Assembly (NCBI RefSeq): GCF_009834535.1
Contig: NC_045696.1
Location: 26,662,001-26,726,000, forward strand
From: Camelus ferus
Taxonomy: Eukaryota
Length of the DNA stretch: 64,000 nucleotides
Direction of reading: 5' to 3'
The stretch's first letter is position 1. The number at the start of each line of letters is the position of its first letter. Positions 6,840 through 61,242 of the stretch are shown here, in pieces. Made by a program: the position numbers and the translations under genes. Below the pieces are notes generated by a model, which was given only the letters and a program-made list of their open reading frames with translations, had not been told where the DNA came from and did not search any database.

Positions 6840-7742
6840 AAAAATGACTGAAGTATAACTGACTTACAATATCATATTACTTTCAGGTGTACAACATAGT
6901 GATTCAATTTTTTTTTACAGATTACACACCATGCGAAGTGATTATAAAATACTGACTATATTCCTTGTGATGTATGTGACATCCCAGTGACTTACATTGT
7001 TTTAAAATTGGTACTTTGTAGCTCTTAAGCCCCTTCACCTATTTTGCCCCTACCCCTGCCTCTCTCCCTGTGTTAACCACTAGTTGTTCTCTGTATCTGT
7101 GAGCCTGTTCCTATTTTGTTATGCTTGTTCATTTGCTTTGCTTTTTAGATTCCACATATAGGTGAAAACATACAGTTTTGACTTTCTCTGGCTTATTTCA
7201 CTAAGCATAATGCTCTCCAGGTCCATCCATGCTGTTGCAGATGGTAAGATTTCATTCTTCGTGTGACTCAGTAATACTCCATTGTATGTATTTGCCACCT
7301 CTTTAACTACATATCTGCCGATGGGCACTTGGTTTGCTTCCATATCTTGCCTATTGTAAATAATGCTGCTATGAACATTGGGGTGTATATATCTTTTTGA
7401 ACTAGTGTTTTTGTTTTCTTTGAATAAATATCCAGGAGTGAAAATGTTGGATTGCGTGGCAGTTCTATTTTTAATTTTTTGAGGAAACTCCATACTGTTT
7501 TCCAGAGTAGCTATACCAATTTACATTCCCACCAACAGTGTGCTAGGTTTCCTTTTTCTCCACATCCTTGCCAACACTTATTATTTCTTGCCTTTTTGAT
7601 GATAGACATTCTGATATGTGTAAGGTGATCTCTCTTTGTGGCTTTGATTTGCATTTCCCTGATGATTAGAATGTTGAGCATCTTTTCATGTACCCATTGG
7701 ACATCTGTAAGTCTTCTATGGAGAAATGCCTACTCAGGTCCT
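6840..7742 (-). mobile_element. L1 3' end (ORF2 C-terminus + 3'UTR), 5'-truncated
   Basis: Tail motif tgaagtataactgacttacaat; ORF 7119-7493 ends in L1-like ...WMDLESIMLSEISQ; diverged TSD-like flanks gagagggaaatttta (6825-6839) and gagagggagaattgta (7743-7758). Confidence 0.92.
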
Positions 7743-16380: not shown

Positions 16381-19300
16381 ACAGTCCTTATTTCTGTAAC
16401 TGGTTACATGGTTGTAGCTGGTATTTATAACTACCTTCTTCCACTGCCCAGTGTATTCCCTTTGCATGCAGCAAGCAACTCGGCTGGTCCTGGTTCTTTA
16501 TCTGGTGGATTGATCTAAACTTTCATTCTCGAAGAGCCTGGACAATTAGTAGTCCTGCTTGGACAGGGTTATTTAGTTTTCCTTTGACCTTAATCACAGG
16601 GCGTGGTAACACTAAGAGACACCCTAAGGGATATCTTATTTTCCCCTGCTTCACTGGAGAGTAGCAGTCCAATTTCCACTTGGTAGTCAGGATCGATCAC
16701 TACAGCCAGCACAGTAACTACCTTCTTTGCCTAATTATTCAGTGGCATGCAGAGTCCAGAGTGGCCAGCTGGCAGTCTTCATTTCCAGTTCAATGGCATC
16801 ATTGTGTGTCTCCTTAGGGAAGTATTTCTCTCCGGGGAATTAAGACCTCTGGGTCAGCAGAGCATAAGATTGTAGAACCTGGAAGCAAAAATTTTGCTAG
16901 GGGGTCATTAGGGGTAAAAGTGAGTGATGTCACTCTCATTTCCACTCCTTGATTCCTGGACCAGTGAACCTTGGCTACAGGACAGACAGGATCATATATC
17001 GGATGCTGATTCAGAACACATACAGCCTTCTGCAGAACCTTGCTCATGGCTTGCAGGGTATTACCACTTAACTGGTGCTGTAACTGAGTCTTTTCTTAAT
17101 GCATTTTTTTCATTGAAGTGTAGTCAGTTTACAGTGTTGTGTTAATTTCTGGTGCACAGCATGATGCTTCAGTCATACATGAACACATATATTTGTTTTC
17201 ATACTCTTTTTCACCATAAGTTACTACAAGATATTGAATATAGTTCCCTGTGCTATACAGTATGAACTTGTTGTTCATGTATTTTATATATAGTAGTTAG
17301 TATTTGCAAATTTCAAACTCCCAATTTATCCCTTCCTACTCCCTTTTCCCCCAGTAACCATAAGTTTGTTTTCTATGTCTGTGAGTCTGTTTCTGATTTG
17401 TAAATAAGTTTGCCTTTTTTTTTTTTCAGATTCCACATATAAATGATATCATATGGTATTTTTCTCCATAAGACTATTCTAACACTCTGAAAAAGCCAGC
17501 TTCTTCAGGATGGTGGGGAACATAGTAAGACCAAGAAATTCCATGAGCATCAGCCCTTTGCCACATTTCTATTGCTGTAAAATAAGTTTCTTGATCAGAA
17601 GCAATGTTGTGTGGAATACCATGACAGTGAATAAGCATTCTGTATACCCATATTTGGTAGATTTTGGGAGAAACATTGAGTACAGAGGAGGAAAATCCAT
17701 ATTCAGATTTTCAGGAGGAAAATCATATTCAGAGTATATTCCTATAAGAACAAAAATCTGCCCCTTCCATGATGGAAGGGGTCCAGTGTAATCAATCTAC
17801 CACCAGGTAGCCTGTTGATCACCTTGGGAATGGTGTCATATTGGGGACTGTGTGTTGGTCTCTACTGCTAGCCAACTGGATATTCAACAGTGGCTATAAA
17901 ACCAGGTCAGCTTTGGTGAGTTACTTGTCCATGTTACTGAACCCATATGCCATTTTTATCCCTGCCACCATGGCCACTTTGCTCATGAGTCACCTGGGCA
18001 GTGAAAGGGGGACTAGAAAGAGATGCTGACTAGTACCCACAAAATGGGTTATTCTATCCACTTGATTATTAAAGTCTTTCTATGCTGAGATCACCCTTTG
18101 CTAGAACATTTATATGTATGCAACTATTTTTACACTTTTTCCCACACAGAGATGTCTATCAACATACCTCTTTCCCAAATTTCCTCATCACCAGTTTTCC
18201 ACTTGTGTTCCTTCCAAGTCCCTGACCATCCAGCCAAACCATTGGCCACGGTCCATCAATTGGTACATAATTGCACATCTGGTTAATTCTCTTTCCAAGC
18301 AAAGTGAGCAACCCAGGTGCATTGCTTGAAGTTCTGCCAATTGGAAGAATTTCCCTTCACCATGGTCCTTCAGGGGACCAGACAGAGGCTGTAGCATACA
18401 GCTGTCCTCTTTTAGGTGGTACCAGCATTTGGTGTAGAACCATCTGTAAACCAGGCCTGAGCCTTCTCTTTCTCTGTCATTTAATTATAGGGAATTCTCC
18501 ACAAGGCCAAAAGTGCAAGCTGGGAGAGAGAAAGCAATGTAGCAGGAGTTACAACCCTGGGCATTTGGGCCACTTCTTCATGTAACTAACTTGTGCCTTT
18601 AGGGCCTGTTCAGCCCAATCAAGATCCACTTCCACTTTTTGATGGAGGGTAGCTGTGCACACTCGACTTTATCTAGCTTGGTGGATCAGATCACACTTGG
18701 TTCTGCTGGGCATCTCAGGTCACATGGTAACTTGGTGGCTCATGGTTAAATGTTCATTCTCTTCTACGGCTCAGTAGTAGGCCAAGAGCTGTTACTCAAA
18801 GGGAGTAGTTAACCATAGTGATGGCCAGGTTTTGCTTTAAAATCCGAAGGGCCTGCACTGTGATCCATATATAGGGGCTTCCCAAAGGCTCCAAACAGCA
18901 TCCTTATCTGACACTGACACTGCAGGCACCACTGATCTGCTGGATCCCGGGGACCAGGGAGCAGACCTGTTCACAGAGCAGCCTGAGCCTGTTGTAGACC
19001 CTTCTTTTACTCTAGGCCCCACTTAAAATGAGCAGCTTTTTGGGTCACTTGGTAAACTAGTTGGGGTAAAACACCCAAAGGAGTATGTTTCCTCCAACAT
19101 CCAAAGAGGCTCACTAGGCACTGTGGTTCTTTTTTGGTTGTAGAAAGGGCTAAATGCAACAGCTTATCCTTTATTAACAAAGATCCTTCACACCGGTGAA
19201 CCCCTAGAAAGTTTACTGAGACAGAAAGCCCCTGAGTTTATGTGGGATTCATTTCCCCAACTCTGACGTGCAAATTTCTTACCAGTAAGTCTAGAATAGC

Positions 19301-22329: not shown

Positions 22330-23630
22330 GTGCAAATCATTATTTTTTCTCTTGCTCCCCTCAAACACTCCATCCCCCTCCAGCTCCTCACTGTCAGCTG
22401 GTGAGGAAAAAAAACACACAAACAGGAGGAAACTCCTCTATCCTCCCATCACAAAATCCAGCTGAACAGCATTTTTCTCCCTCTCTCTTATTACTGTTAT
22501 TACTGGTGAATTTTCCTTCCTCCCATCAAAGGCCAGGACCCCACTGTGCACACCCTCCCCCTCTCTCTTACATCAGAAATTTATCTCCTTCTCCTGAACC
22601 ACTCATATAAGACTTGAAAGATCCAAAATCATCCTTATTTATGATCTAGTATTTCCCTGCCACACATTGTTTTCAATGACTATTAATAGTGAACGTGTTG
22701 GAGAGTGGTCTATAATTCCTCTACTTGCTTATTGTACACACTTGCCTTAACCCAGTCCATTCAGGCCTCCTTTTCTCCACTCTGCAGAGATGGCTCCTGT
22801 CAAGGTGACCAATAAGCAACCCAAATTCTGTGGTCACTATTTTGCTTTTTCTTAGCTGAAATCTCAACCTCACTCAACCCAGCTTACCACTACTCCTTTC
22901 TTGTAACTTTTCTTCTCCTGGCCTCTGTGGCATCCGGCCTCCGAGGCGTCCCCCTGCCTCCATGGCACCCCTTCTAAGTCTCCTCTTGCTCAATTCTGCT
23001 GCTCTGCTTGGTCACTAACGGCTGGGGACCCTCTGGCTTCAGTCTTGGGCCTCCTTCTTGCCTATTTCCCTATCCCCTCGATGCTCTCACCCAATCCCAT
23101 AGCTTTAAATAACACTGATGCACCGACAGCTCCCAGATCTGTACCTCTAACCCAGACACTTCCCGCCATCTCCAGACTGACACATTCTACTAACGACTTG
23201 ATTTTTCCACATGCGTATCTAACAAGTATTTGAAACTTCAGGTTAATAAACCAATTCCTCTGAGAGATCTTTTCTGAAGATCCTAACATAGCCCTAACGT
23301 GGTAATCTCCATCACATAAAAGTGTTATTTTAAAATTTCTTTTTTTTTTTATAATTTTTTTTGGGGGGTGATTAGGTTTATTTATTTATTCATTTTTTTG
23401 ATGGAGGTATTGGAGGTTGAACCCATGACTCATGCATACTGAGCAGGCACTCTACCACTGAGCTATACCCTTCCCCGTAAACATGTTATTTTTGATTTTT
23501 TTTTCACTAAAATGATCTCTTTCATTTATTTCCTCATGTTTGATCTAACTCTACACTTGAATGTAAGTTCCAAAAGGTCAAAGACTTCAACCTTTTTCAC
23601 CAAATTTCTTTAGTGTCTATGTAGTTTGGA
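22330..23630 (+). mobile_element. L2 LINE (ORF2 remnant to 3' region), interrupted by a SINE
   Basis: Pyrimidine-rich; gctcctgtcaaggtgaccaataa, cccatagctttaaataacactgatgc, gaatgtaagttccaa. Confidence 0.8.
23332..23476 (-). mobile_element. Full-length camelid-type tRNA-derived SINE (Vic-1-like)
   Basis: Reverse complement reads ggggaagggtatagctcagtggtagagtg (A box) ... gggttcaacctcc (B box) ... aaataaataaacctaatcaccccc + A tail; TSD taaaagtgttatttt (23317-23331) / taaacatgttatttt (23478-23492). Confidence 0.9.
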
Positions 23631-24964
23631 TTTTATTTTAGGTGCATATTTTTAATATTTACCTCGTTTTCAGACATTCAATAATCTGATCTGTCTCAGC
23701 CCTTAGATTTCTCACAATTACCAGCCTTTATCTGTGTCACTGACTCTTTCCTAAACGTCCACGTTGCCCTTGGTCTTCTCAATCTACTTTTGCTAACTGC
23801 TCATCCCTGCTATGAAAGCACTTTTCGCTAAGTATCAACTAAAACCATCGTGTGGGTTGTTCCTATCATTTAAAACTTGTGAGAATGATCTGATTTCCAG
23901 TCATTTTCAAGTGTTACCTTTATTTTCACTTATGCAGCAAATGAAAGAGAGAACCAAGAAGGAAAATGTAGGAATTACTTTACAAAAAAAGCAAACTAGA
24001 AAGAAGTTCAGAAAAAATAATTTAAAAAACCTTGAAAAAAATACTTTTATGAGTTTGTTTTAAATTCAGATATTGTGTTTTATTTATAGCACTTTTTGGT
24101 CAGTGTTTCTGAATCACTAAATCATTATTCTTTTACTTCCATAAAGTCAAGAATTAAAAAATATATTTTCAATTCTGTTTTCATGATTAAAATATACAAG
24201 TATATGAAAATGTAAAAGCACAAAAGCACATGGAGAAATTACTTAAACATGACCACTTAAAAACTAACATATCCACAAGAAAATGGCATGTACATCATGT
24301 ATCTTTAATTTCCAAACATACAGATATTTAGCCAGGCCTGTGTTTACATCAGGAAAATATTCCTAATAGCATAGTTAATCTTACTTTTTTAGTCTTATTT
24401 TTTTCCCATCTGCACAATAAACAAGGTAATATAGTGGGACTAGATGTAGTTCCACTGTAAATATATCCTCATCTAAAAGTAGCTTTAGGATCCATGTTTT
24501 GAATTAAACTGGTAGCCCTGTTTTGATGTCTGAAGCAAACTACTTCCACATTAGCCTTGTGAGCAATACAAAGACTCCAGCACAACTGTTAAGTTAGCCT
24601 CAGGAATGCTTATTTGAAAAAAAATATTTTCATTAAATGCTCTATTTTTGCCAACAAAGGTGCACCAGCTTATTTCCTTATGGAACATCTGTCCTTTTCA
24701 AATTTCTTTTGGTTCCTTGACCAAATCAAGGACATCCTGGCCCAGAGCAGCAGCTCACAGCTGTGTTTACAGGAGTTGTTGACAAGAGAAAATGTATCCC
24801 ATGCACCAGGACTGAGAGCTGCTATACAGAGAGAGCAGGACATGTGATGAATGTCAGCACTAAGAAATTTTACTTAAGCATTTGTTACTTCAGGTTTTTT
24901 TTTTTTCTTAAGAGATTAGAAAAGAGGTAGCCTTACCATATCAAAGCTAATTATTTAGAAAGTA

Positions 24965-25423
24965 CTTTTCAAATTGAAGTATAGTCCATTTACAATGTTG
25001 TGTTAATTTCTGGTGTATAGCATAGTGATTCAATTATATATAAAATGTATATTCCTTTTCATACTCATTTTCATTATAGGCCATTACAAGGTATTGAATA
25101 CAGTTCCCTGTGCTACACAGTAGGACTTGTTGTTTATGTGTTTTATATAGAGTACTTAGTAACTGCAAATCCCAAACTCCCAATTTATCCCTCCCCTGCT
25201 TTCACCTCTGGTAACGATAAGTTTATTTTCTATGTGAGACTGTCTCTGTTTCATAACTAAGTTTATTTGTGTCCTTTTTTCTTTAGATTTCACATATAAG
25301 TGATATACTATATTTCTCTCTCTTTCTGGCTTACTTCACTTAGTATGATGATCTCCAGGTCCATCCATATTGTTGCAAATGGCATTATTTTATTCTTTTT
25401 TATGACTGAGTAGTATTCCATTG

Positions 25424-25425
<2 letters not shown>
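24965..25425 (-). mobile_element. L1 3' end
   Basis: attgaagtatagtccatttacaatgttgtg; translation [34 protein letters not shown] is the L1 ORF2 C-terminus. Confidence 0.92.

Positions 25426-25462
<37 letters not shown>
25424..25462. repeat. (TA)n(TG)n microsatellite
   Basis: tatatatatatgtgtgtgtg... Confidence 0.92.
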
Positions 25463-25466
<4 letters not shown>

Positions 25467-27169
25467 TTTTAATTTGGATAGTGTTACTGATAAAAAAAAG
25501 TTAACATTGTCTGAAAACATTGAATAAGGAAGGGGCCAAGTATTAAATTCTGAGAAGAAATATAAGAAATAAAATTAAATAAAGGTGCAATATTAAGTTA
25601 TTGGACTATTGAAAATAATTATGTCAATGTTTGTAAGGAAGAGAGTCGATACATATTTATACATATAGTAAATGTTTCAGGTAATTAATTATATCAGATA
25701 GATATAAGGAAATGAAGGTACAGATGAGACTATCGTATTTTCCCCCCAAAGTGTTACTGATAATTTTCCTAGATTTTAGAAAGAACAACTAATTAAACAT
25801 CAAAAATTTAAAAGTTGGAAAAAGGAACATTGATTCTAAATCTGAAATAAAATGGGAATGGTCTAATGTTGGACATAGTCGTTCAACTCGAAATTGAGGT
25901 TGGGGAGTGAGTGAGAGCAAACTGAGATCAACAATAGTGAAAGTGAGGTTTCAAAAGGTTCTTTAAAGAAGGTTGTGTGTTATCTGGATACACAGTTGAT
26001 GGAAAATCTAAACTGGTACATTTTTGGAGGATCATTTGGCAATAGGTATTGGGAGATGTAAAGCTGAGCATTTTTTATTTTGCAAAAAAGAAAACCATCC
26101 TAAAATATTTTCACAAAGTAATTTTCTCCCCAACACAATATTTTCATCTTTGAGATGACAAGTCTGACTGCAGTCATGATTCATCTAGAGTATTAAAAAT
26201 ATCACCAAGCTTCCCAGCTGCCCAAGAGGGATGCAGAGAAAAATAAGCATTCCTTTAAAAATTTCCCCTTTTACTACAATGCATCTTTCCCTGTAAAAAC
26301 TATAGAAGACCATTAGCACACAGAATGTGCTTTGTCTTTCACAGACAAAAGAGAGAGGCCAGGGAAGGACTAGCTCACCATAGGCTATCGAGAAGAATGA
26401 CTAAAGAGGCATCTCTTCCTTCTGAACTCTATTTTCTTTTAAACTGTATTGTCCCCTAGCCTCCTCTGAACTGGCTAGCCCAAATCTAAATTGGACTGAA
26501 TTTCTGCGGTGGAAATATAAGCTTAGTCAATAGTCCAAATAAATGATATCTCCCATGCTTTTTCTGCTCTGTCCACAGAAATGTACTAAACCACTGCATT
26601 TGCCACTATCTTCCTGGATAAAAAACATGACAAGATAAGACCTGAAAAGGAATAAATTCCTAAATGTCAGTGCCACATTTCCTGCATCTGGAGCTTGCTT
26701 TGCATTTATTCCTTCTCTCTCATCTATCAAAACCACGATATCATACAGAAACGGGCAAACATTTGCAATTTTTATCCCTTCATAATATATTTCTCAGCAT
26801 AAAGTAGGAATTTGATGGAATAAAAGTGGTTGATAAGAAAGTTTTAGAACACATAATATTTAAATTAAGAGAATAAAAAAGTAAGGAAGCATACTGAAGA
26901 AGCACGTCTTCTAGGGCAGAAAGCCCATACTATTTATTTTTTAAGCTAATTAGTGCTTTTTTAAAAAAACAAATATTTATTGAGTAACAACGAGGTGCTA
27001 GGAACTCTAATGGGAAAATATGCTTTTTTGTTGTTGAGTAGGTATGGATGGCCAGGTTACAGAGTACCTGAAAACTAGTCGTAGAAATATGGACTTAAAT
27101 AGGCAGAATGAAGATTTTAAAAATTCTTGAGAAAGAGAGAAGATAACCAAAGTATTGTATTTGGCATCA

Positions 27170-27415
27170 CAAGTGAATTCTTCAAACCACAGTCTATGGG
27201 CCTAATCTGGCCTTCTCAAGCTAAGACATTTTTATGTAGTTTTAAATAGTTTTTAAAAAGAAAAAGAATATTTAGTGATATGAAAATTTATGAAATTGAA
27301 ATTTCAGTGTTCATAAATAAAGGGGTTTTTTTGGGAACACAGCAACACAGTTCTTTGATTATATATTGTCTGTGGCTGTGCTCCTGCTCTGATGCTAAAG
27401 TTGAGTAGCTAAGAA
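27170..27415 (+). mobile_element. MER58-like hAT-Charlie DNA transposon fragment
   Basis: caaaccacagtctatgggcctaatctggcc...taaataaagg...ggaacacagcaacac...tattgtctgtggctg...gttgagtag. Confidence 0.75.
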
Positions 27416-27517
27416 GTTGTGGTTTGAGTTGCTTACCAAGAAGTAGGACCAATTTCTCCCTCAAGTTCTAGGCAAGTTAAAAAGAGTAAATTAAAGGACA
27501 TAAAAATATAGCTCTAC

Positions 27518-28480
27518 CCAACAGGAGCCAGGAAGGACCTATGCTTGCGAGGCAATACAAGACCTCAGGTACCTGTTTAAAAAAAACGAACAAATGATAT
27601 CATGTCGCGGTGATTACAAATGTTTAACCATGCCTTTTAAGTCTTTTTGTCATTACTGACTGCCAAACTGTTGTTACAAAGGTGCTTCATCTTTAAGAAA
27701 ATTCATCAGAAGTCAATGGAAACAGTGGGTTACGGCAGCCCCACATCAGATGACGGCTGTGCGAGGATTCCAGCCCACACCCTCAGCCCTTGGATGCAAA
27801 AAAAAAGGCTGTCCTGCCCCTGGGGCCCCTAGATTAGGCACTGAGAGATTTTTACTCCCTGATAGGCAGGGTCAATGCCCCTACTCAGCCTGGAAGCAGT
27901 TTCAGAAGATAGACCCTTGCCCCTCTGTAACCCCATAAGATTATGGGAGTAAAATCTCTGAGGAGGGAATGAGACAGGATGGAAGGGGGCAGGGCACAGC
28001 CATTCAAGGAATGCCACAGCAATTAACATCAAAATGGTGAAAGATTCAAACCCCAGTAGACCTTGAGGCTCAGGATGAAGAGATTTAACTTCTAGCAGAT
28101 CTTGAGCTTCATTATACACCCACTGTAATATTAACAAGGTGAATAACACACCCACAGGCACCGTGGCAGTCCCAAGGCTAGCCACAGAAGGTCAAAGATG
28201 GGAAATGGCCAACTTCCTGGGAATCCCAGCCCCTTCCCCTTAGACTGGTCTTTCTACTTATTAGCATATGAAGCCACCAAGCCCATAAAAACCAGCAAAA
28301 CGGAGCCTAGTGGCCACCCCTCTCTCTCCCTCTGGAGACAGCTCGCATTCTGTCTATGGAGTGTGTACCTACTTTTAACCTCAGCACCCAATCCCCACAC
28401 TTCGTGGCTTTTCTTGCCTTTCAATGTATCTCTCTGAATAAATCTACCTTCACTCAAAAAAAAAAAATATATATATATAT
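27518..28480 (+). mobile_element. Processed (L1-retrotransposed) copy of an ERV1 transcript 3' end: integrase C-terminus, env tail, PPT, U3-R, poly(A)
   Basis: TSD atatagctctac (within aaaaatatagctctac 27502-27517; 28481-28492); PPT gaggagggaa 27960-27969; LTR start tgagacagg 27970; AATAAA 28437-28442; poly(A) 28456-28467; no U5. Confidence 0.85.
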
Positions 28481-28743
28481 ATATAGCTCTACTAACTAAT
28501 AAAGCTAATATTGGAAAGCAAGTTTTATATATGTGGGCTAAGGGACCTCTTAATAGTGATTTTCATTATAGAAAGATTAACCTATTAAATCAAAAGAAGT
28601 ACTGAGCTCCTGTGTGGGGGGCAGGCTCTTTTCACCAGATGACATAGGAGAGAACAGGGTACATATTCTCTACAGGCAGTTACCTCCTGAAGAGAAAGAT
28701 ACGAGGAGTTAGAGGAGTTTCTTATGACAAAGTCACCAGTCAG

Positions 28744-29115
28744 ACTATGAACTCATCCACAAAACAGAAACAGACTCACAGACACAGTAAACAATCTTAT
28801 GGTTACTGGGGAAAGGGGTTGGGAAGGGAAAAATTTGGGAGTTTGAGATTTGCAAATGTTAGCCACTATATATAAAAATAGATTGAAAAAAACCAAGTTT
28901 CTTCTGTATAGCACAGGGAACTATATTCAATATCTCATAATAACCTTTAATGAAAAAGAATATGAAAATGAATATATGTATGTATATGCATGACTGGGAC
29001 TTCGTGCTGTACACCAGAAATTGACACATTGTAACTGACTGTACTTCAATAAAAACAAATAAATAAAATAAAAATCTAAACAAACAAACAAAAAAACCCC
29101 AAAAAACAAAAAAAT
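28744..29115 (+). mobile_element. Young L1 3'UTR with A-rich tail
   Basis: ...ttgtaactgactgtacttcaataaaaac + A tail; TSD tcaccagtcag 28733-28743 / 29121-29131. Confidence 0.92.
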
Positions 29116-29582
29116 ACACCTCACCAGTCAGGTTAATAAATCTTGCTCTTCAGAGAAGTAATCATAGTTGGTAGAGAGAGGCCATTTGTGTTTTCTTGTG
29201 GAAATGAAAGGACTGGTAAATAGATGTTCCACCCACCCATCCCCAATGTTTTGATTTTCTTAACCCTCTGGCCTTAAACAGTAAGTCAAGGCAAGTTACA
29301 ATGATCTCTTCAGGGAGAGCATCAGCCCATTGGCAGTCTTGTCTTCAGCTTCCCTGAATACAAGCCACTGATCCCTTCTGGTTTCTCTTGGGATGGTTGC
29401 ACCTAGAAGGCCCTAAAATATTTCAGGACAGTATATAAATAAAAGTAACTCCAAATCCACTCTGTAACCAAAGCAGTACTTCCAGTTCCCACACTATTTC
29501 TCATCCAAAAGTTTCAAACCAAGTTCACTGTTATAGCTTATCTAAGCTTCCAGTAAACAATGCAATTAAAGACACGTTATAA

Positions 29583-50531: not shown

Positions 50532-52920
50532 CATCAGCAAGAATCACGTGAAGGACTAAGTAAACATTAGTAGGGGAGAAAAAGAAAAATACTTTAGTTT
50601 AAATGGCCAGAAAATATACATTTCAGATTTATAGGGCCTATGATCAAGCTACTTTTTAATTTAAAAAGAAAGCAAAACACATTTCCAGTGTTTGGGAAGC
50701 TGATGTAGTCTTTTTGCTCACAATTGAAATCAGCAGAAAACACTCTCTGTTGGTTATTTATTTTGCATGTTTTAAAGGTGCATTATTAACTAGTATATGA
50801 AAAACTAATTATAAGTCAAAATTCAACCTTGCTTAAGGGCACATCTAAGAGCAACAAATCTCTGGTTTTACATGCCTGGTATGACCCATAACAAACCATT
50901 CGAGAATCACATCGTTTCATGTGGCAGTGTTACAAGAGATAATAAATTAGGACAGCTAAATCAAATTTTAAAAGCACCCAGCTTTAGAAGTCCCCCTGAT
51001 ACTTTAATTTGGAATGTACACTCTTGTCAAGTAAACAGTTATTTCCTGTACACCACCCCTCTTAAAAGCTGATGGTCTGCTTCCTTTCATATGGCCTAGA
51101 ACATCAGAGAGATTAAGAGGAGTTCAGGATGACTTGTGATGTCTTTCCTGGGATGGTGATGTCTTTTCCTAGTCTCAGAAAGGAACTTGCTCCAGTCATG
51201 AGAGAGGCTTCTCCTTCTTAGGGGAATGCAGGCTGATAGAATTTCTACATTATCTCAAAGGGAAAGACTCCAAGAAGTTGGACCTCAATTCTGATTGTGG
51301 AAACACAGCATCCACAAAGTGACTGTTCATCTCATTTTGACAGCATCTGACAGTTGCTCCCCTGAGATCTTCAACCTAAAATCCAGGAAGGATTCAAGAA
51401 GCCCCCATATTTTACATGACTTATGATCCCGAAATCAGATCCCCATTTTACAATGAATTTTAAAGTAATCCCCCCTAATATATTGGTTCTCTCAAATGCA
51501 TTTCCTCCTCGAACATCCACTAAATGTTGGTTCTGCACTTTACTTTTTTAATCTTTAACTCAGTGAATATTTACGTAAGAAAGTGTACATCTGTCTTTAT
51601 CCCTACAACTGTGGCATAATCAGGAAGTTTTGAAATCTGCAGTCCTGTGCGTTTATCTTCTCTCACATGTTCTGTCCGTGTTCCTCACCCCTCTCTTCCA
51701 ACACCCACAGACCGTAAGCAAAACTAAGATGCCTGCATGGAGATAGTGTGACTGAATCTTACATTTTCAATTTCTGCCACGGATATTTAAAAAACGGGAT
51801 TTTCCTCTCATCTTGAAGGTATTCATGCTGATTTTCTGTTCGCTAACTGGGCCATGAATATATTAAGTCACTCATATCAACTCTGATTTTAGTTCTCACT
51901 CTGTCTTTATATTTTCTCTATCATTGCCGGAGAGTTGGATCATAGCTTGAACTTACTCTACCAGCATGACAAAAGAGAAATTCCCAATGATTTTGCAATT
52001 AGCTAAGTGATTAAATTTTATCATTCTTTGATCAAAAAATGTTAGGAGCCCCAAGGAGACGAAGAGATAAACATCTATACATGCACAATCAATTAAATAG
52101 GCCGTATATTACAGTTACATAAATTTTTCAAGTATCTGAAAATACGTGAGTCACTTTTTTTCTGCAATAGAATTTTAGCTATTGTTGTTGGGTAGACACA
52201 CCCATAATCAATTAGTTACACTGAATAGTTCATGCAAAGTGCTTATTGGTACTTGGTGTGTACTGTCCGTTAATGTCAATTATTAGTATTATTCATACTG
52301 TTCATCCTTATTTAGGCTGTCTTTAAAATGATTTAAAAATACAAAAACGTTTACTTACAAATAACAAGGGATTTTTTTTTCACTTCATAATGAACATTTT
52401 ATATGTGAACTGCAGTTTAACTTTTCCACAATACCTTCATTAAGTTAGCATAAACCATTCTTAGCATTATACCAGAACCATACAGGAGACATAGGTCAAA
52501 TAATCCTTTAAGTTTTGTGGAACTGATTTTCCATTTTCAAAAGAAGAGTATCTCTTAAGCATTCTGCATTATTTTCGCTTATTAATCTGTCTCCTTAATG
52601 TAGCAAAATTGCCTTTCTAATGTGCATGCTTAAACATCTATAATGATTAAAGAAGTTTATGTTCTCTCTTTGCATAATGATTACCCACTTACCTGTAAAG
52701 TTTATGCACACAATATAGTGAGATTATGTAGTTTACTTAATAACAATGATGCTTGATACACATCTCTAGGCATCATCTCTGTGACTGATACACTAGAAAT
52801 ACTACACTTAAAATGTAAAATTTTATTGAGAATTATTTTTAATTGTTTATTACCTCATTTTAAGATATACAGATAATAATAAAGATTTAAATAAATAGTA
52901 TATAATACAAGTATATAAAG

Positions 52921-53095
52921 GTGAGGAGGGTATTGCTTAGTGGTAAAGTGCTGTGCTTAGCATGCATGAGGTCCTGAGTTCAATCCCCAGTACCACTTAA
53001 AAAATAAATAAATAAATAAATAAACCTAATTATCTCACCCTCCTCCCCCCACCAAAAACAAAACAAAACAAAACAAAAAAACCACCCCAACAGCA
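52921..53095 (+). mobile_element. Full-length camelid-type tRNA-derived SINE (Vic-1-like)
   Basis: gagggtattgcttagtggtaaagtg (A box), gaggtcctgagttcaatccccagtacc (B box), (taaa)n cctaattatctc, (caaaa)n tail; flanking repeat atataaagg. Confidence 0.9.
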
Positions 53096-55099
53096 ATAAA
53101 GATATAAAGGGAATTTGTATATAGCAAAAAAAAAAAAAATCTATTATATTGATTTTACCAATGATCTTAAAAACTGATTAAATATATTAATATATGTTAA
53201 GGTAGTTACATAAATTTTGAATACAGAAAAAGGAATAAATTTACTGATTGATTAAGCAGTACTAACAATCTATATTACAAGGAAACTGTCAGTTTATTAT
53301 AATGCAATTGTATTGCAAATATTGATGCTAAAAATATAAGTAAGTATTTAACATTGTCCTATCAGAAGTGAAAACCATGTACCTAAGAACTAAGAGAAAA
53401 GCACGTGGACATAAGTTATATCAAAGACAAAAATCATTTTTATAAATTATATTATTTGTTTACTCTGCAGTTAGTAAGATATATTGAGTTTCAAACATAT
53501 AAAAATATTTTAAAAGGCCATACTTAATAAACCTGTAGTGTATTTACACTATTATATTTTATTTGATAACAAAACAAAAAAAATTTTATAAAATAAGAAC
53601 AATGATTCCTCTAAATTCTCAGAAAATAGAATGTCCCACTGACAGTGTGTACTTCCCTTTTTTAACCTATTGTACTCTGATGGATTTATTTAAATTATAT
53701 TTGACTATGTTTTCATTTTGCAAGACTTTCTGTTATAGTACATTGCATTTTGGTCACATTTGATTACCACATTCATAAACTACATGAGTGAGCACTTCAC
53801 CAGTATATTAATCCAAATATGGATGAGCTGTTTGGTCATCTTTAGTACTAATATGCACTCATTTTCCTTTATACCCTACGTAGCTGCTTGTCTTAAGCTA
53901 GGGTAGCCATTTCCTAACTTACATGAAAATTGAATTCAGTTGGGAATTGTATTGGAAAAATAACCCATAAAAGGAAAATCCATTTATATGGAATACATAA
54001 TTTAGTACTTGGGAGTCACACAAAGCTTTGCGTGCATATAAGCAGATGCCTTTGTATTTTATTTATTCAAAGCAAAAGAGATCAATAGTGAGAACAGACC
54101 TATTCATCTAGTTAATGGGATACTTTCCAACTCAAGTTTATAATAAATTCTGGGGCTTCAAATATTCTTTAATTAAGTAAGGATTTTAAATATTCCATAA
54201 GAAGGAGAAAAGTTAGCACAATTGTATTTACTGTTTACATTTAGATTATTTTTTCACCAAATTTATGAAAATAATCAAGAGCATTTTAGTGGAAAACCAC
54301 TTATATCTTTGGTTGTATCTTGGGTGTGCTGTGGGGATAATAAAAAATATGACTTTAATAACTACAGAAACACTGACCCAACAGAAATATTTTAGAATCT
54401 AATAAGGTTCATTTTGAATCACTGCTGTAAAATACAATTTTTTTTTCTTAAAGAGTAAACCAATCTAATTCTAGCAGGAACAAAGGCACTAGATACAAAT
54501 GTTATACTCAGTTGCCCAGAAGTGATGAACTTAGGAGAAAATAATGTAAATAAATGATTAGTTTCATCAAAAAATCATTACATCAAAAATGATATAATTT
54601 TAATCCCTTTTTATGAACCTCTGAGTAGTACAGAAAGGTAGTTGGTCATAATTTAGAATGAACAAGAATTAGAATTAGAGTTCTACTTCTACCCTGTGAA
54701 GAACTGACAGTAAATACTTGGTTCTTAGAATCCAGGAAGGTAAGGATGGACTATTAAAAATAAAATGAATAGGAAATATTACTGCAAACATTTCTATGTC
54801 TATAGTGTAGTGTCAGTAACATTACCATTAATGCAAAATTTTGACGAAAAATGATGTAAAGTCTCTGCAGGTAGCGTAAAATAATTGCTTTTACTGAATA
54901 TTTCATGTTAAAGAAAATAAATCAGAAAGGTAAAGCCCCAAACTATCTTAATTATTCTGTCAATGGACAAAAACTGGTCTAGAGAAATAAATCATTTCCA
55001 CTCATGATGGCCAACATTTTACATTTACTCACCAGTAAGTATCTTGATAAAAAATAACATTAGAATATGCATATACATATATTTATTTTATGATAACGT

Positions 55100-58074: not shown

Positions 58075-58270
58075 TTTAAAAAACTTTATTAAAGTATAGT
58101 TGATTTACAATGCATTGTTAGTTTAAGGTGTATAGCAAAGTAATTCAATTATACATACGTATTTTTTATTTTTCAGATTCTTTTCCATTACAGTTTATTA
58201 AAAGATACTGAATATAGTTCCCTGCACTATGCAGTAGGTCCTTGTTATCTGTTTTATATATAGTGGTCCA
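58075..58270 (-). mobile_element. L1 3'UTR fragment
   Basis: ttattaaagtatagttgatttacaatg...gaatatagttccctgcactatgcagtaggtccttg. Confidence 0.88.
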
Positions 58271-58924
58271 TATATGTTATCTCTAGCTGCAATGTTTATA
58301 TAACTCAAATGTATTTTACTATTGAGTTGTAACAACTTGAGATGAGGTACTGGATCTCTCTGATCTGTACCCCAACCTTTTTTGTTACACACATATACTA
58401 GAAGCTATGTGCTTATTTATGGATTGTTGAATTGAGTTTAGTGATAAAACTGAATTCCTGTGGCCACCCTCCAGAGTCTCCCAGTAAACCTAATAGAAGT
58501 ATTTTGGTGAGAAGTCAGAAGGTGGTAGTTGATTAAGTAAAATGGTGTGTGTTGTAGACAAACATGGATGTCAGATCACTGAGAGAAAGAGTCTCTGCCA
58601 AGAATTTCCTTTTTACCTCAGTGTTGTAGTATTTTCTTTAACCTAGCATTTTCTGTCTAGATCTTGGTATGATCTAATTCTGCCTGTGGTTTAAAGAAAA
58701 ATATTGCACTGTGACAAGGTATTTTCTCCCCCTTATAAAGCAAGCAATGTGGAAACTCAAGCTTTTCTAAATATGTTTAGTGTCAATATAATTAATTTTC
58801 ATAGTCCAGGAATGAAATTCAAAAACTGAAGTTGAGAATGGGTATAAAGAGGCATAGTTCCTTTCCCCCCAAATATCCCCAATTTCAAGTCAAAAGCCAG
58901 CAATGCCAAAAGGATCTGGAAGGG

Positions 58925-59419: not shown

Positions 59420-60870
59420 TCAAAGAAAATATGCACATAAATATTCATATCAGTGACAATAAACTGGAAATAACCCAATGCCCATAAGGAGGAGAATGCA
59501 TATTCTAATTATGGTAGAGTCATATAATGGAATGCCTCTCAGCAAAAAAAAAAAAAAAAAAAAAAGGACTGAACCATTTTGGTATACCTGGATGAATCTC
59601 ATGCAATTATGCTGAGCAGAAAAAGAAAGACATCACAAGAGCATACTGTATAATTCCATTTATATGAAGTTCAGGAAAAGGCAAATTAGGTCACTATTAG
59701 ACACAGAAATCAGAACAGCAATTAAGTTTGAATGAGGGAGCAGAGAAGGGGATTTATAGGAAGTGAGCTTGAGAGAACATTCTAGAATGATAGAAATGTT
59801 CTATATTTTGATGAGTGTGTTGATTACCAGGGAATATTCATCTGTCAAACTCAAACTGCTCTAAAGAAGACATCCAGATGGTCCACAGGCACATGGAAAG
59901 ATGCTCAGTTTTGCTAATTATCAGAGAAATGCAAATCAAGACTACAATGAGGTATCACCTCACACCAGTCAGAATGGCCATCATTAAAATGTCTAAAAAT
60001 AATAAATACTGGAGAGGGTGTGGAGAAAAAGGAACTCTCCTACACTGTTGGTGGGAATGTAAAATTGTGCAGCCACTATGGAGACCAGTATGTAGGTCCC
60101 TTAAAAAAGTAAAAATAGAGTTACCATACAATCCAGCAATCCCACTACTGGGCATATATCTGGAGAAAACTCTAATTTGAAAAGACATATGCACCCCAAT
60201 GTTCACAGCAGCATTATTTACAATAGTCAAGACATAGAAACAACTTAAATGTCCATTGACAGATAAATGGATAAAGAAGATGTGGTATATGTATATGTGT
60301 GCATACACATACATACACACACACCCCCAACACACAATGGAATATTATTCAGTCATAAAAAATGAAATAATGCCATTTGCAGCAACATGCTTGGACCTAG
60401 AAATTACCACATTCAGGAAGTAAGTCAGATGGAAAAAGACAAATATCATAAATTGTCACTTATATGTACAGTCTAAAAGAAATACATAAATTTTATTTAC
60501 AAACCAAAAATAGACTCATGGACATAGAAAACAAACTGTGGTTATCAGGGCAGAAAGGGAGAGGGAGGGACAGATCAGGAATTTGAGATTAACAGATACA
60601 CATTACTATGTATAAAATAAACAAAAAGGACCTACTGTATAGCACAGGGAACAATATTCAATTTCTAATAATGGGGTGTAATGGAAAAGAAACTGAAAAA
60701 ATATATATGTAAGTATGTACATGTATAACTGAATCACTTTGCTGTACACCTGAAACTAACATTGAAAATCGACTACACTTCAATAAAAAATAAGAATTAT
60801 AATTTTTAAAAACCTCAAATTGTACTTTTAAGATCTGTACATTTATCACATGTAATTACACCTCAGTAAA
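59420..60870 (+). mobile_element. Old L1 3' end, interrupted by a younger L1
   Basis: gcatactgtataattccatttatatgaagttcagga...; resumes at ~60811 with taagatctgtacattt...aattacacctcagtaaaa. Confidence 0.75.
59860..60800 (+). mobile_element. L1 3' end: ORF2 cysteine-rich domain + 3'UTR + tail
   Basis: ORF 59878-60180 [24 protein letters not shown]...[18 protein letters not shown] (CCHC domain, first Cys changed to Tyr); ends cttcaataaaaaa; TSD-like aaactcaaactg / aacctcaaattg. Confidence 0.95.
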
Positions 60871-61161
60871 AGGAGGGCAAGAGCCAACCTGAGAATTTGA
60901 TACATGGAGCAAAACAAAGCCCATCATCCTACATACACTAGTAAAGGAAGCTCAGGCTCTCAGCCTCTATGGACGTCCCCCATATTCCAAAACCTGGAGT
61001 GTGCCCTCTGGCATTTGATCAAAACCAAGATTTCTCCAACATCACAAAACACACCAGAACTGCTGTTATTCAACATTTCACTTTCTAGCTTTCGTTTAAG
61101 ATGGCCATGTCTCCAAAATATTTCAAGAAAGCATGTTCTATTTTTATCACTGGCATTTTAT

Positions 61162-61242
61162 TTAAAATAATTTTTTTAATTGAAGTATAGTTAGTTTACA
61201 ATGACGTGTCAATTTCTGGTGTACAGCATAACAGTTCAGTCT
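61162..61242 (-). mobile_element. Very short L1 3' end insertion
   Basis: aattgaagtatagttagtttacaatgacgtgtcaatttctggtgtacagc; TSD ctggcattttat 61150-61161 / ctggcagtttat 61247-61258. Confidence 0.85.

Follow-up and report, generated by a model that had tools for sequence, protein, structure and literature searches.

The insert described here lies on the forward strand of a 64-kb stretch of DNA that was analysed as a whole and is referred to below as the window (Table 1). Its body comprises 938 nt (27518–28455) and is followed by a run of 12 adenines and then by (TA)8 at 28468–28483. On the left stands a 16-nt repeat, AAAAATATAGCTCTAC, and the right copy, ATATAGCTCTAC, is identical to the last 12 nt of it; neither side extends the match exactly, and of the 12 exactly matching nt, just 7 are not part of the TA run. 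Given that the left repeat reads A5 and then (TA)2, compared with (TA)8 on the right, the duplication was probably 16 nt long originally, the TA microsatellite having expanded later. The insert is also set off by its base composition, with a GC content of about 47% in the body vs 33% and 38% in the flanks, and with GC per 40-nt bin jumping from 0.28 to 0.53 across the 5' junction.

Within the body, 452 nt of internal sequence (27518–27969) are situated upstream of the LTR part, and the body begins in non-LTR sequence with no 5' U3. Self-alignment of the 64-kb window revealed neither a second copy of the body nor an internal repeat of the LTR part, and the latter result means that the insert has no 5' copy of R. 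At the 3' end, the A-run starts 13 nt after AATAAA, at a CA (28455–28456), which is the usual cleavage dinucleotide. The element stops at this cleavage site, and U5 is seen to be missing only in that sense. The coordinates given in the earlier note for the repeats, the purine tract, the TG, the TATA-like box, AATAAA and the spacing of the poly(A) all held on recheck. Its statement that the element had no terminal CA with a short TSD was right in its second half, since target duplications of 4, 5 and 6 nt gave 0 matches, but not in its first, since a CA is present at the cleavage site.

Table 1. Positions of the features of the insert in the window.
Feature	Position	Strand	Basis
Left TSD copy, 16 nt, begins at AT/AAAA	27502..27517	+	Repeat comparison; motif as defined in PMC5016936
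5' end of insert, abruptly truncated; assumed to be ERV internal sequence	27518..27649	+	Homologue searches without match; GC step
3' internal region of LTR element, non-coding	27650..27959	+	Translated matches P0003–P0008; start approximate (frame comparison with P0008)
Polypurine tract	27960..27969	+	Sequence; P0003 and P0005 align across
LTR portion U3-R, 486 nt, TG start (27970), ends at poly(A) cleavage site	27970..28455	+	Sequence; P0005 alignment
TATA-like box CATAAAAA	28284..28291	+	Sequence; P0005 C-terminal residues agree
Polyadenylation signal AATAAA	28437..28442	+	Sequence
Poly(A) tail remnant A12	28456..28467	+	Sequence
(TA)8 expansion and right duplication copy (exact part 28481–28492)	28468..28492	+	Sequence

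A search with the longest forward ORF of the internal part (27660–27935) among 1.84 billion cluster representatives returned six matches at E values up to 0.001; five are gene calls without a name in ENA assemblies, and the sixth is a predicted alpaca protein (P0008, XP_072798200.1). The alpaca match supports the earlier note's assignment of the window to a probable camelid. Altogether, 21 proteins were aligned to the insert, and eight of these alignments were inspected in detail. Translated matches of P0003–P0008 fell within 27678–27983 at 42–67% identity, with the alpaca protein matching 27678–27776 at 67%. P0005 was collinear with the window at 27697–28020 and 28082–28240, with frame changes, and spanned the purine tract into the LTR part, and the tract was also crossed by the P0003 alignment. 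The C-terminal three residues of P0005 equal the translation of the window over the TATA-like box, and P0005 ends 330 nt (with the stop) after its LTR-start codon, close to the distance in the window, where the box ends at 322 nt. Translation was collinear with the relatives from about 27680 to 28290, and the matched relatives covered neither the first ∼130 nt nor the R region; for 27518–27649, no homologue was found by self-alignment of the window, the cluster-representative protein search or the protein-to-insert alignments. Given these collinear protein relatives, the body belongs, as judged from sequence, to a dispersed repeat family with the order internal tail, purine tract, TG, U3 and TATA-like box.

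The ORFs of these relatives are likely chance reading frames on a repeat and not real genes. All three forward frames of 27518–27969 contain stops, and a coding function for the ORFs of the insert was rejected, as each relative is either an unnamed gene call or a predicted model, and as their frames shift relative to the window. Pfam matched none of four ORFs from the insert and one of eight proteins, with a LANC_like domain in P0008 outside the segment common with the insert. No env or retroviral protein family was matched in the Pfam and env searches of the insert and its relatives, pol is absent from the insert, Rfam gave no match inside it, and an Atlas search with P0004 returned no usable match. 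We take the internal part to resemble an env tail of the ERV1 type that has decayed, and the env tail and LTR together presumably resemble the ERV1 or gamma-like class. Of the earlier designation as an ERV1 LTR element, the LTR-element nature was supported by the collinear relatives; the ERV1 class was not, as the env and Pfam searches remained blank.

P0003 and P0009–P0022 were part of a cluster of 23 near-identical unnamed ENA gene calls with the same internal tail and LTR start, among which 14 compared members of length 177 differed at 0–5 residues. This cluster probably represents animal host DNA in those assemblies. In the alpaca protein, the LANC_like region lies at 191–294, and another copy of the internal tail of the insert's family supplies the final ∼35 residues; P0008 may be a pseudogene or exon that a gene model fuses to the ERV segment.

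The two routes by which such an element could have entered the genome leave different traces. L1 insertions are described as having TSDs of 7–20 bp together with poly(A) and an endonuclease site, vs 4–6 bp for retroviral integrase (PMC13756887), and L1-processed ERV copies as having a U3-R 3' LTR, poly(A), a TT/AAAA site, a duplication of 5–15 bp and often no 5' LTR (PMC5016936, PMC6114882). At this locus, A12 follows downstream of the LTR poly(A) signal, and the flanking duplication is long by the ranges in both PMC5016936 and PMC13756887, being 12 nt exact and probably 16. The left junction, AT/AAAA, shows one mismatch to the L1 endonuclease motif TT/AAAA as defined in PMC5016936, so that the insertion motif is present in this slightly altered form. 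L1-processed copies begin either with R-U5 or at a truncation, without 5' U3, and the insert likewise has a truncated start, in non-LTR sequence. Conversely, a flanking repeat of 12–16 nt is not the 4–6 bp duplication of an integrase, and neither two full U3-R-U5 LTRs nor a bare solo LTR is found, since a single LTR part follows the 452 nt of internal sequence. For a solo LTR, duplications of 4, 5 or 6 nt were sought without a match, and this model was rejected. The earlier proposal that L1-type TPRT copied a polyadenylated RNA ending at the LTR poly(A) site finds good support in the tail, the duplication, the motif and the truncation. We therefore consider it likely that the insert is a 5'-truncated ERV transcript placed by L1, like HERV-W processed pseudogenes, in which case L1 would have been the enzyme, the ERV's own transcript the template, and U5 would have been lost.

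Exact 12-nt repeats alone are not rare in the window, where 17 12-mer pairs at 13 distinct places have a spacing of 200–3000 nt. We also assembled all A-runs of at least eight adenines on both strands of the window (n = 46; 20 on the forward and 26 on the reverse strand). In this comparison, devised after the insert had been seen, AATAAA lay 10–30 nt upstream of five of the 46 A-runs, a flanking repeat of at least 12 nt accompanied one, and signal and flanking repeat occurred together at one, which is the insert. An order-2 Markov model gave an expectation of 0.004 for such a match (up to 3 kb upstream, about 20 registers). The repeat alone is thus unremarkable, and the combined arrangement is rare. 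These figures bear on a reading in which deletions removed the 5' part and U5 from a provirus inserted by integrase, and in which local microsatellite noise explains the repeat and the A/TA run. The 13 places with 12-nt exact repeats, the A/T-rich region and the partial TA content of the repeat would all be compatible with such a history. However, it requires two independent deletions, ending exactly at the repeat pair and at the CA 13 nt past AATAAA, and it conflicts with the one in 46 A-runs, the 0.004 expectation and the lack of a fitting 4–6 nt duplication, so that we regard it as the least probable of all readings considered and scarcely credible.

All L1 hallmarks at the locus would be predicted equally well if the template had been an L1 read-through transcript (an orphan 3' transduction) or else a host transcript terminated by the LTR poly(A) signal of a resident ERV, with the L1 or host part removed by 5' truncation, and in that case the ERV RNA would not itself have been mobilised in trans. 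The first ∼130 nt of the insert, which are without a matched relative, fit this origin. The alpaca gene model P0008, which fuses a LANC-like region to this ERV segment, indicates that chimeric readings of the insert's family exist, at least as predictions, and host transcripts captured by LTR poly(A) are described in cattle (10.64898/2026.07.09.737535). On the other hand, no L1 or exon sequence was recognised in the insert, which does not match the L1-like repeats of the window, and the LTR part is preceded by 452 nt of internal sequence, as proviral RNA would give. Overall, a read-through or host template seems unlikely.

Under the preferred reading of an ERV transcript copied by L1, the source would have been a provirus at another genomic site, a member of an LTR/ERV family, whose transcript received its poly(A) tail at the R end of the 3' LTR. 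L1 ORF2p would then have nicked an A/T-rich site and primed on the poly(A) tail, and reverse transcription would have copied about 940 nt before stopping early. The expected product is TSD, 3' internal region, PPT, U3, R, poly(A) and TSD, in this order, and subsequent shortening of the tail and growth of the TA run within the right duplication could account for the present state. The copy is dead, without an ORF, a 5' LTR or U5.

The CpG observed/expected ratios of the body (0.28 and 0.15) compare with 0.22 and 0.13 in the flanks. Given that the body is CpG-depleted like its flanks and that the tail is short, the insertion event was likely not recent. Several other repeats in the window carry A-rich tails and duplications. 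A repeat at 28733–29131, which lies 240 nt downstream of the insert on the same (forward) strand, is truncated at its 5' end, A-tailed and accompanied by an 11-nt duplication (28733, 29121). Five related pieces occur in the window at 71–86% identity, and we take the repeat to be an L1 3' end. Two tRNA-like elements (Rfam tRNA) at 23323–23492 on the reverse strand and 52913–53110 on the forward strand have A-rich tails and 9-nt duplications, and presumably represent a camelid tRNA-derived SINE. The presence of A-tailed repeats with 9–11 nt duplications in the window suggests that the same route was used repeatedly in this region. Self-alignment further revealed mutually similar L1-like fragments in both orientations at 6849–7723, 17097–17466, 24951–25461, 58085–58283 and 59859–61241. 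The ORFs at 7119–7520 and 59824–60180 look to us like the C-terminus of L1 ORF2, and Pfam matched neither of these two L1-like ORFs.

Further copies were sought outside the window. Short-motif scans gave 0 matches in viral contigs and 0 in prokaryote genomes, and two metagenome matches and one genome match were dismissed as chance, as no similarity continued past the 21-nt motif. Locus searches with P0005, P0003 and alignment A1 confirmed none among 10, 5, 55, 58 and 17 candidate stretches. Word-indexed protein searches, which are weak negatives, confirmed 0 of 134, 0 of 13 and 0 of 2 candidates, and a search of this type found no relative of the junction-spanning translation. For window positions 27000–28700, the best 20 of the 23 public DNA runs listed (∼2 Gb each) carried 0.58–0.63 of the words, shares that cannot separate the insert locus from other copies and that come from a query of which the flanks make up 42%. 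Three organism labels occurred among these runs, with nearly equal word shares. That the shares stay well below the full set may stem from a related species or from words dropped out of repeat contigs. Given that the shares reach 0.58–0.63 while the flanks are only 42% of the query, some words of the insert are probably present in these runs.

An internal tail followed by U3-R and poly(A) could also be the unit of a SINE-R-like non-autonomous retroposon that amplifies itself via L1, for which SINE-R/SVA is a precedent. Such a unit would share the architecture of the insert, and short ORF-less ERV1 elements are described as abundant in alpaca, though LTR-bounded (PMC8605555). Against membership in such a family stands the single copy in 64 kb. 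In addition, the TATA-like box in U3 would probably drive R only and not the whole unit, and a SINE-R-like copy would therefore need an outside promoter. We consider this origin very unlikely for the insert. The broader proposition, that the insert's family was either mobilised by L1 on a large scale, with a substantial share of copies of the U3-R-poly(A) type, or has a unit that turned into a SINE-R-like retroposon, is doubtful, with a modest chance of being correct. The spread of the family in trans via L1, as put forward in the earlier note, is an extrapolation from one copy that is so far unsupported.

If true, the broader proposition would give HERV-W a counterpart outside primates; according to PMC5537654, no other HERV group is specifically mobilised by L1, and what determines this is still unexplained. 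In the account of PMC6995185, the closely related ERV-W of New World monkeys has no processed copies, and the sources leave open why L1 heavily copied the RNA of HERV-W but not that of New World monkey ERV-W (PMC5537654, PMC6995185). Comparing RNA features would become possible with an independent family from a second mammalian order. Taken alone, the insert is an unexceptional dead retrocopy of a kind already described, and it would matter more only if its family proved rich in such copies. Its presence or absence may be informative as a marker among camelids, and it may record, as a fossil, where the RNA of its LTR ended.

Our literature search found no report of an ERV retrocopy in camelids, including in the main accounts of PMC8605555 and PMC6675863, and the supplements of PMC8605555 may name the family. 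The L1 route for ERV RNA is itself already known, being common in one human retrovirus family and occasional in others. In HERV-W, 135 of 213 loci are given as processed copies (PMC5016936), and the 5' LTR is reported absent in more than 50% of the pseudogenes (PMC5016936, PMC5537654). Like HERV-W processed pseudogenes, the insert is short, has a 3' LTR that ends at R, poly(A), a TT/AAAA-like site and a long duplication, and is missing the 5' LTR. Unlike them, it comes from a different host order and family and is known here from one copy.

Single events outside HERV-W are represented by ERVK-30 and ERVK-31, which are described as retrocopies of HERV-K(HML-2) rec mRNA made by L1 (PMC4351823). 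On the preferred reading, the insert is similar to these in being a sporadic L1 retrocopy of ERV RNA with a duplication, a truncated 5' end and both a poly(A) signal and a tail, whereas ERVK-30 and ERVK-31 are described there as spliced, class II and transcribed, and the insert is known here from its DNA sequence alone. Closer in host is the ARTenvV retrocopy of Hippotraginae antelopes, reported as made by L1 with a 14-bp duplication at a TTAAAA site (PMC9604959). Both cases involve an artiodactyl host and, on the preferred reading of the insert, ERV-derived RNA retrocopied by L1, but ARTenvV is presented as a spliced mRNA from a co-opted, ORF-bearing env gene, in contrast to the non-coding 3' proviral end with U3-R of the insert. 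Finally, "LINE1-mediated retrotransposition of ERV" is treated as a standard process in PMC6114882, characterised by loss of the 5' U3 and 3' U5, larger 5' truncations, poly-A and L1-type duplications, and with respect to this general class, as described there, the insert shows no difference in kind. It is best filed, provisionally, under L1-processed ERV copies, outside the primate HERV-W group.
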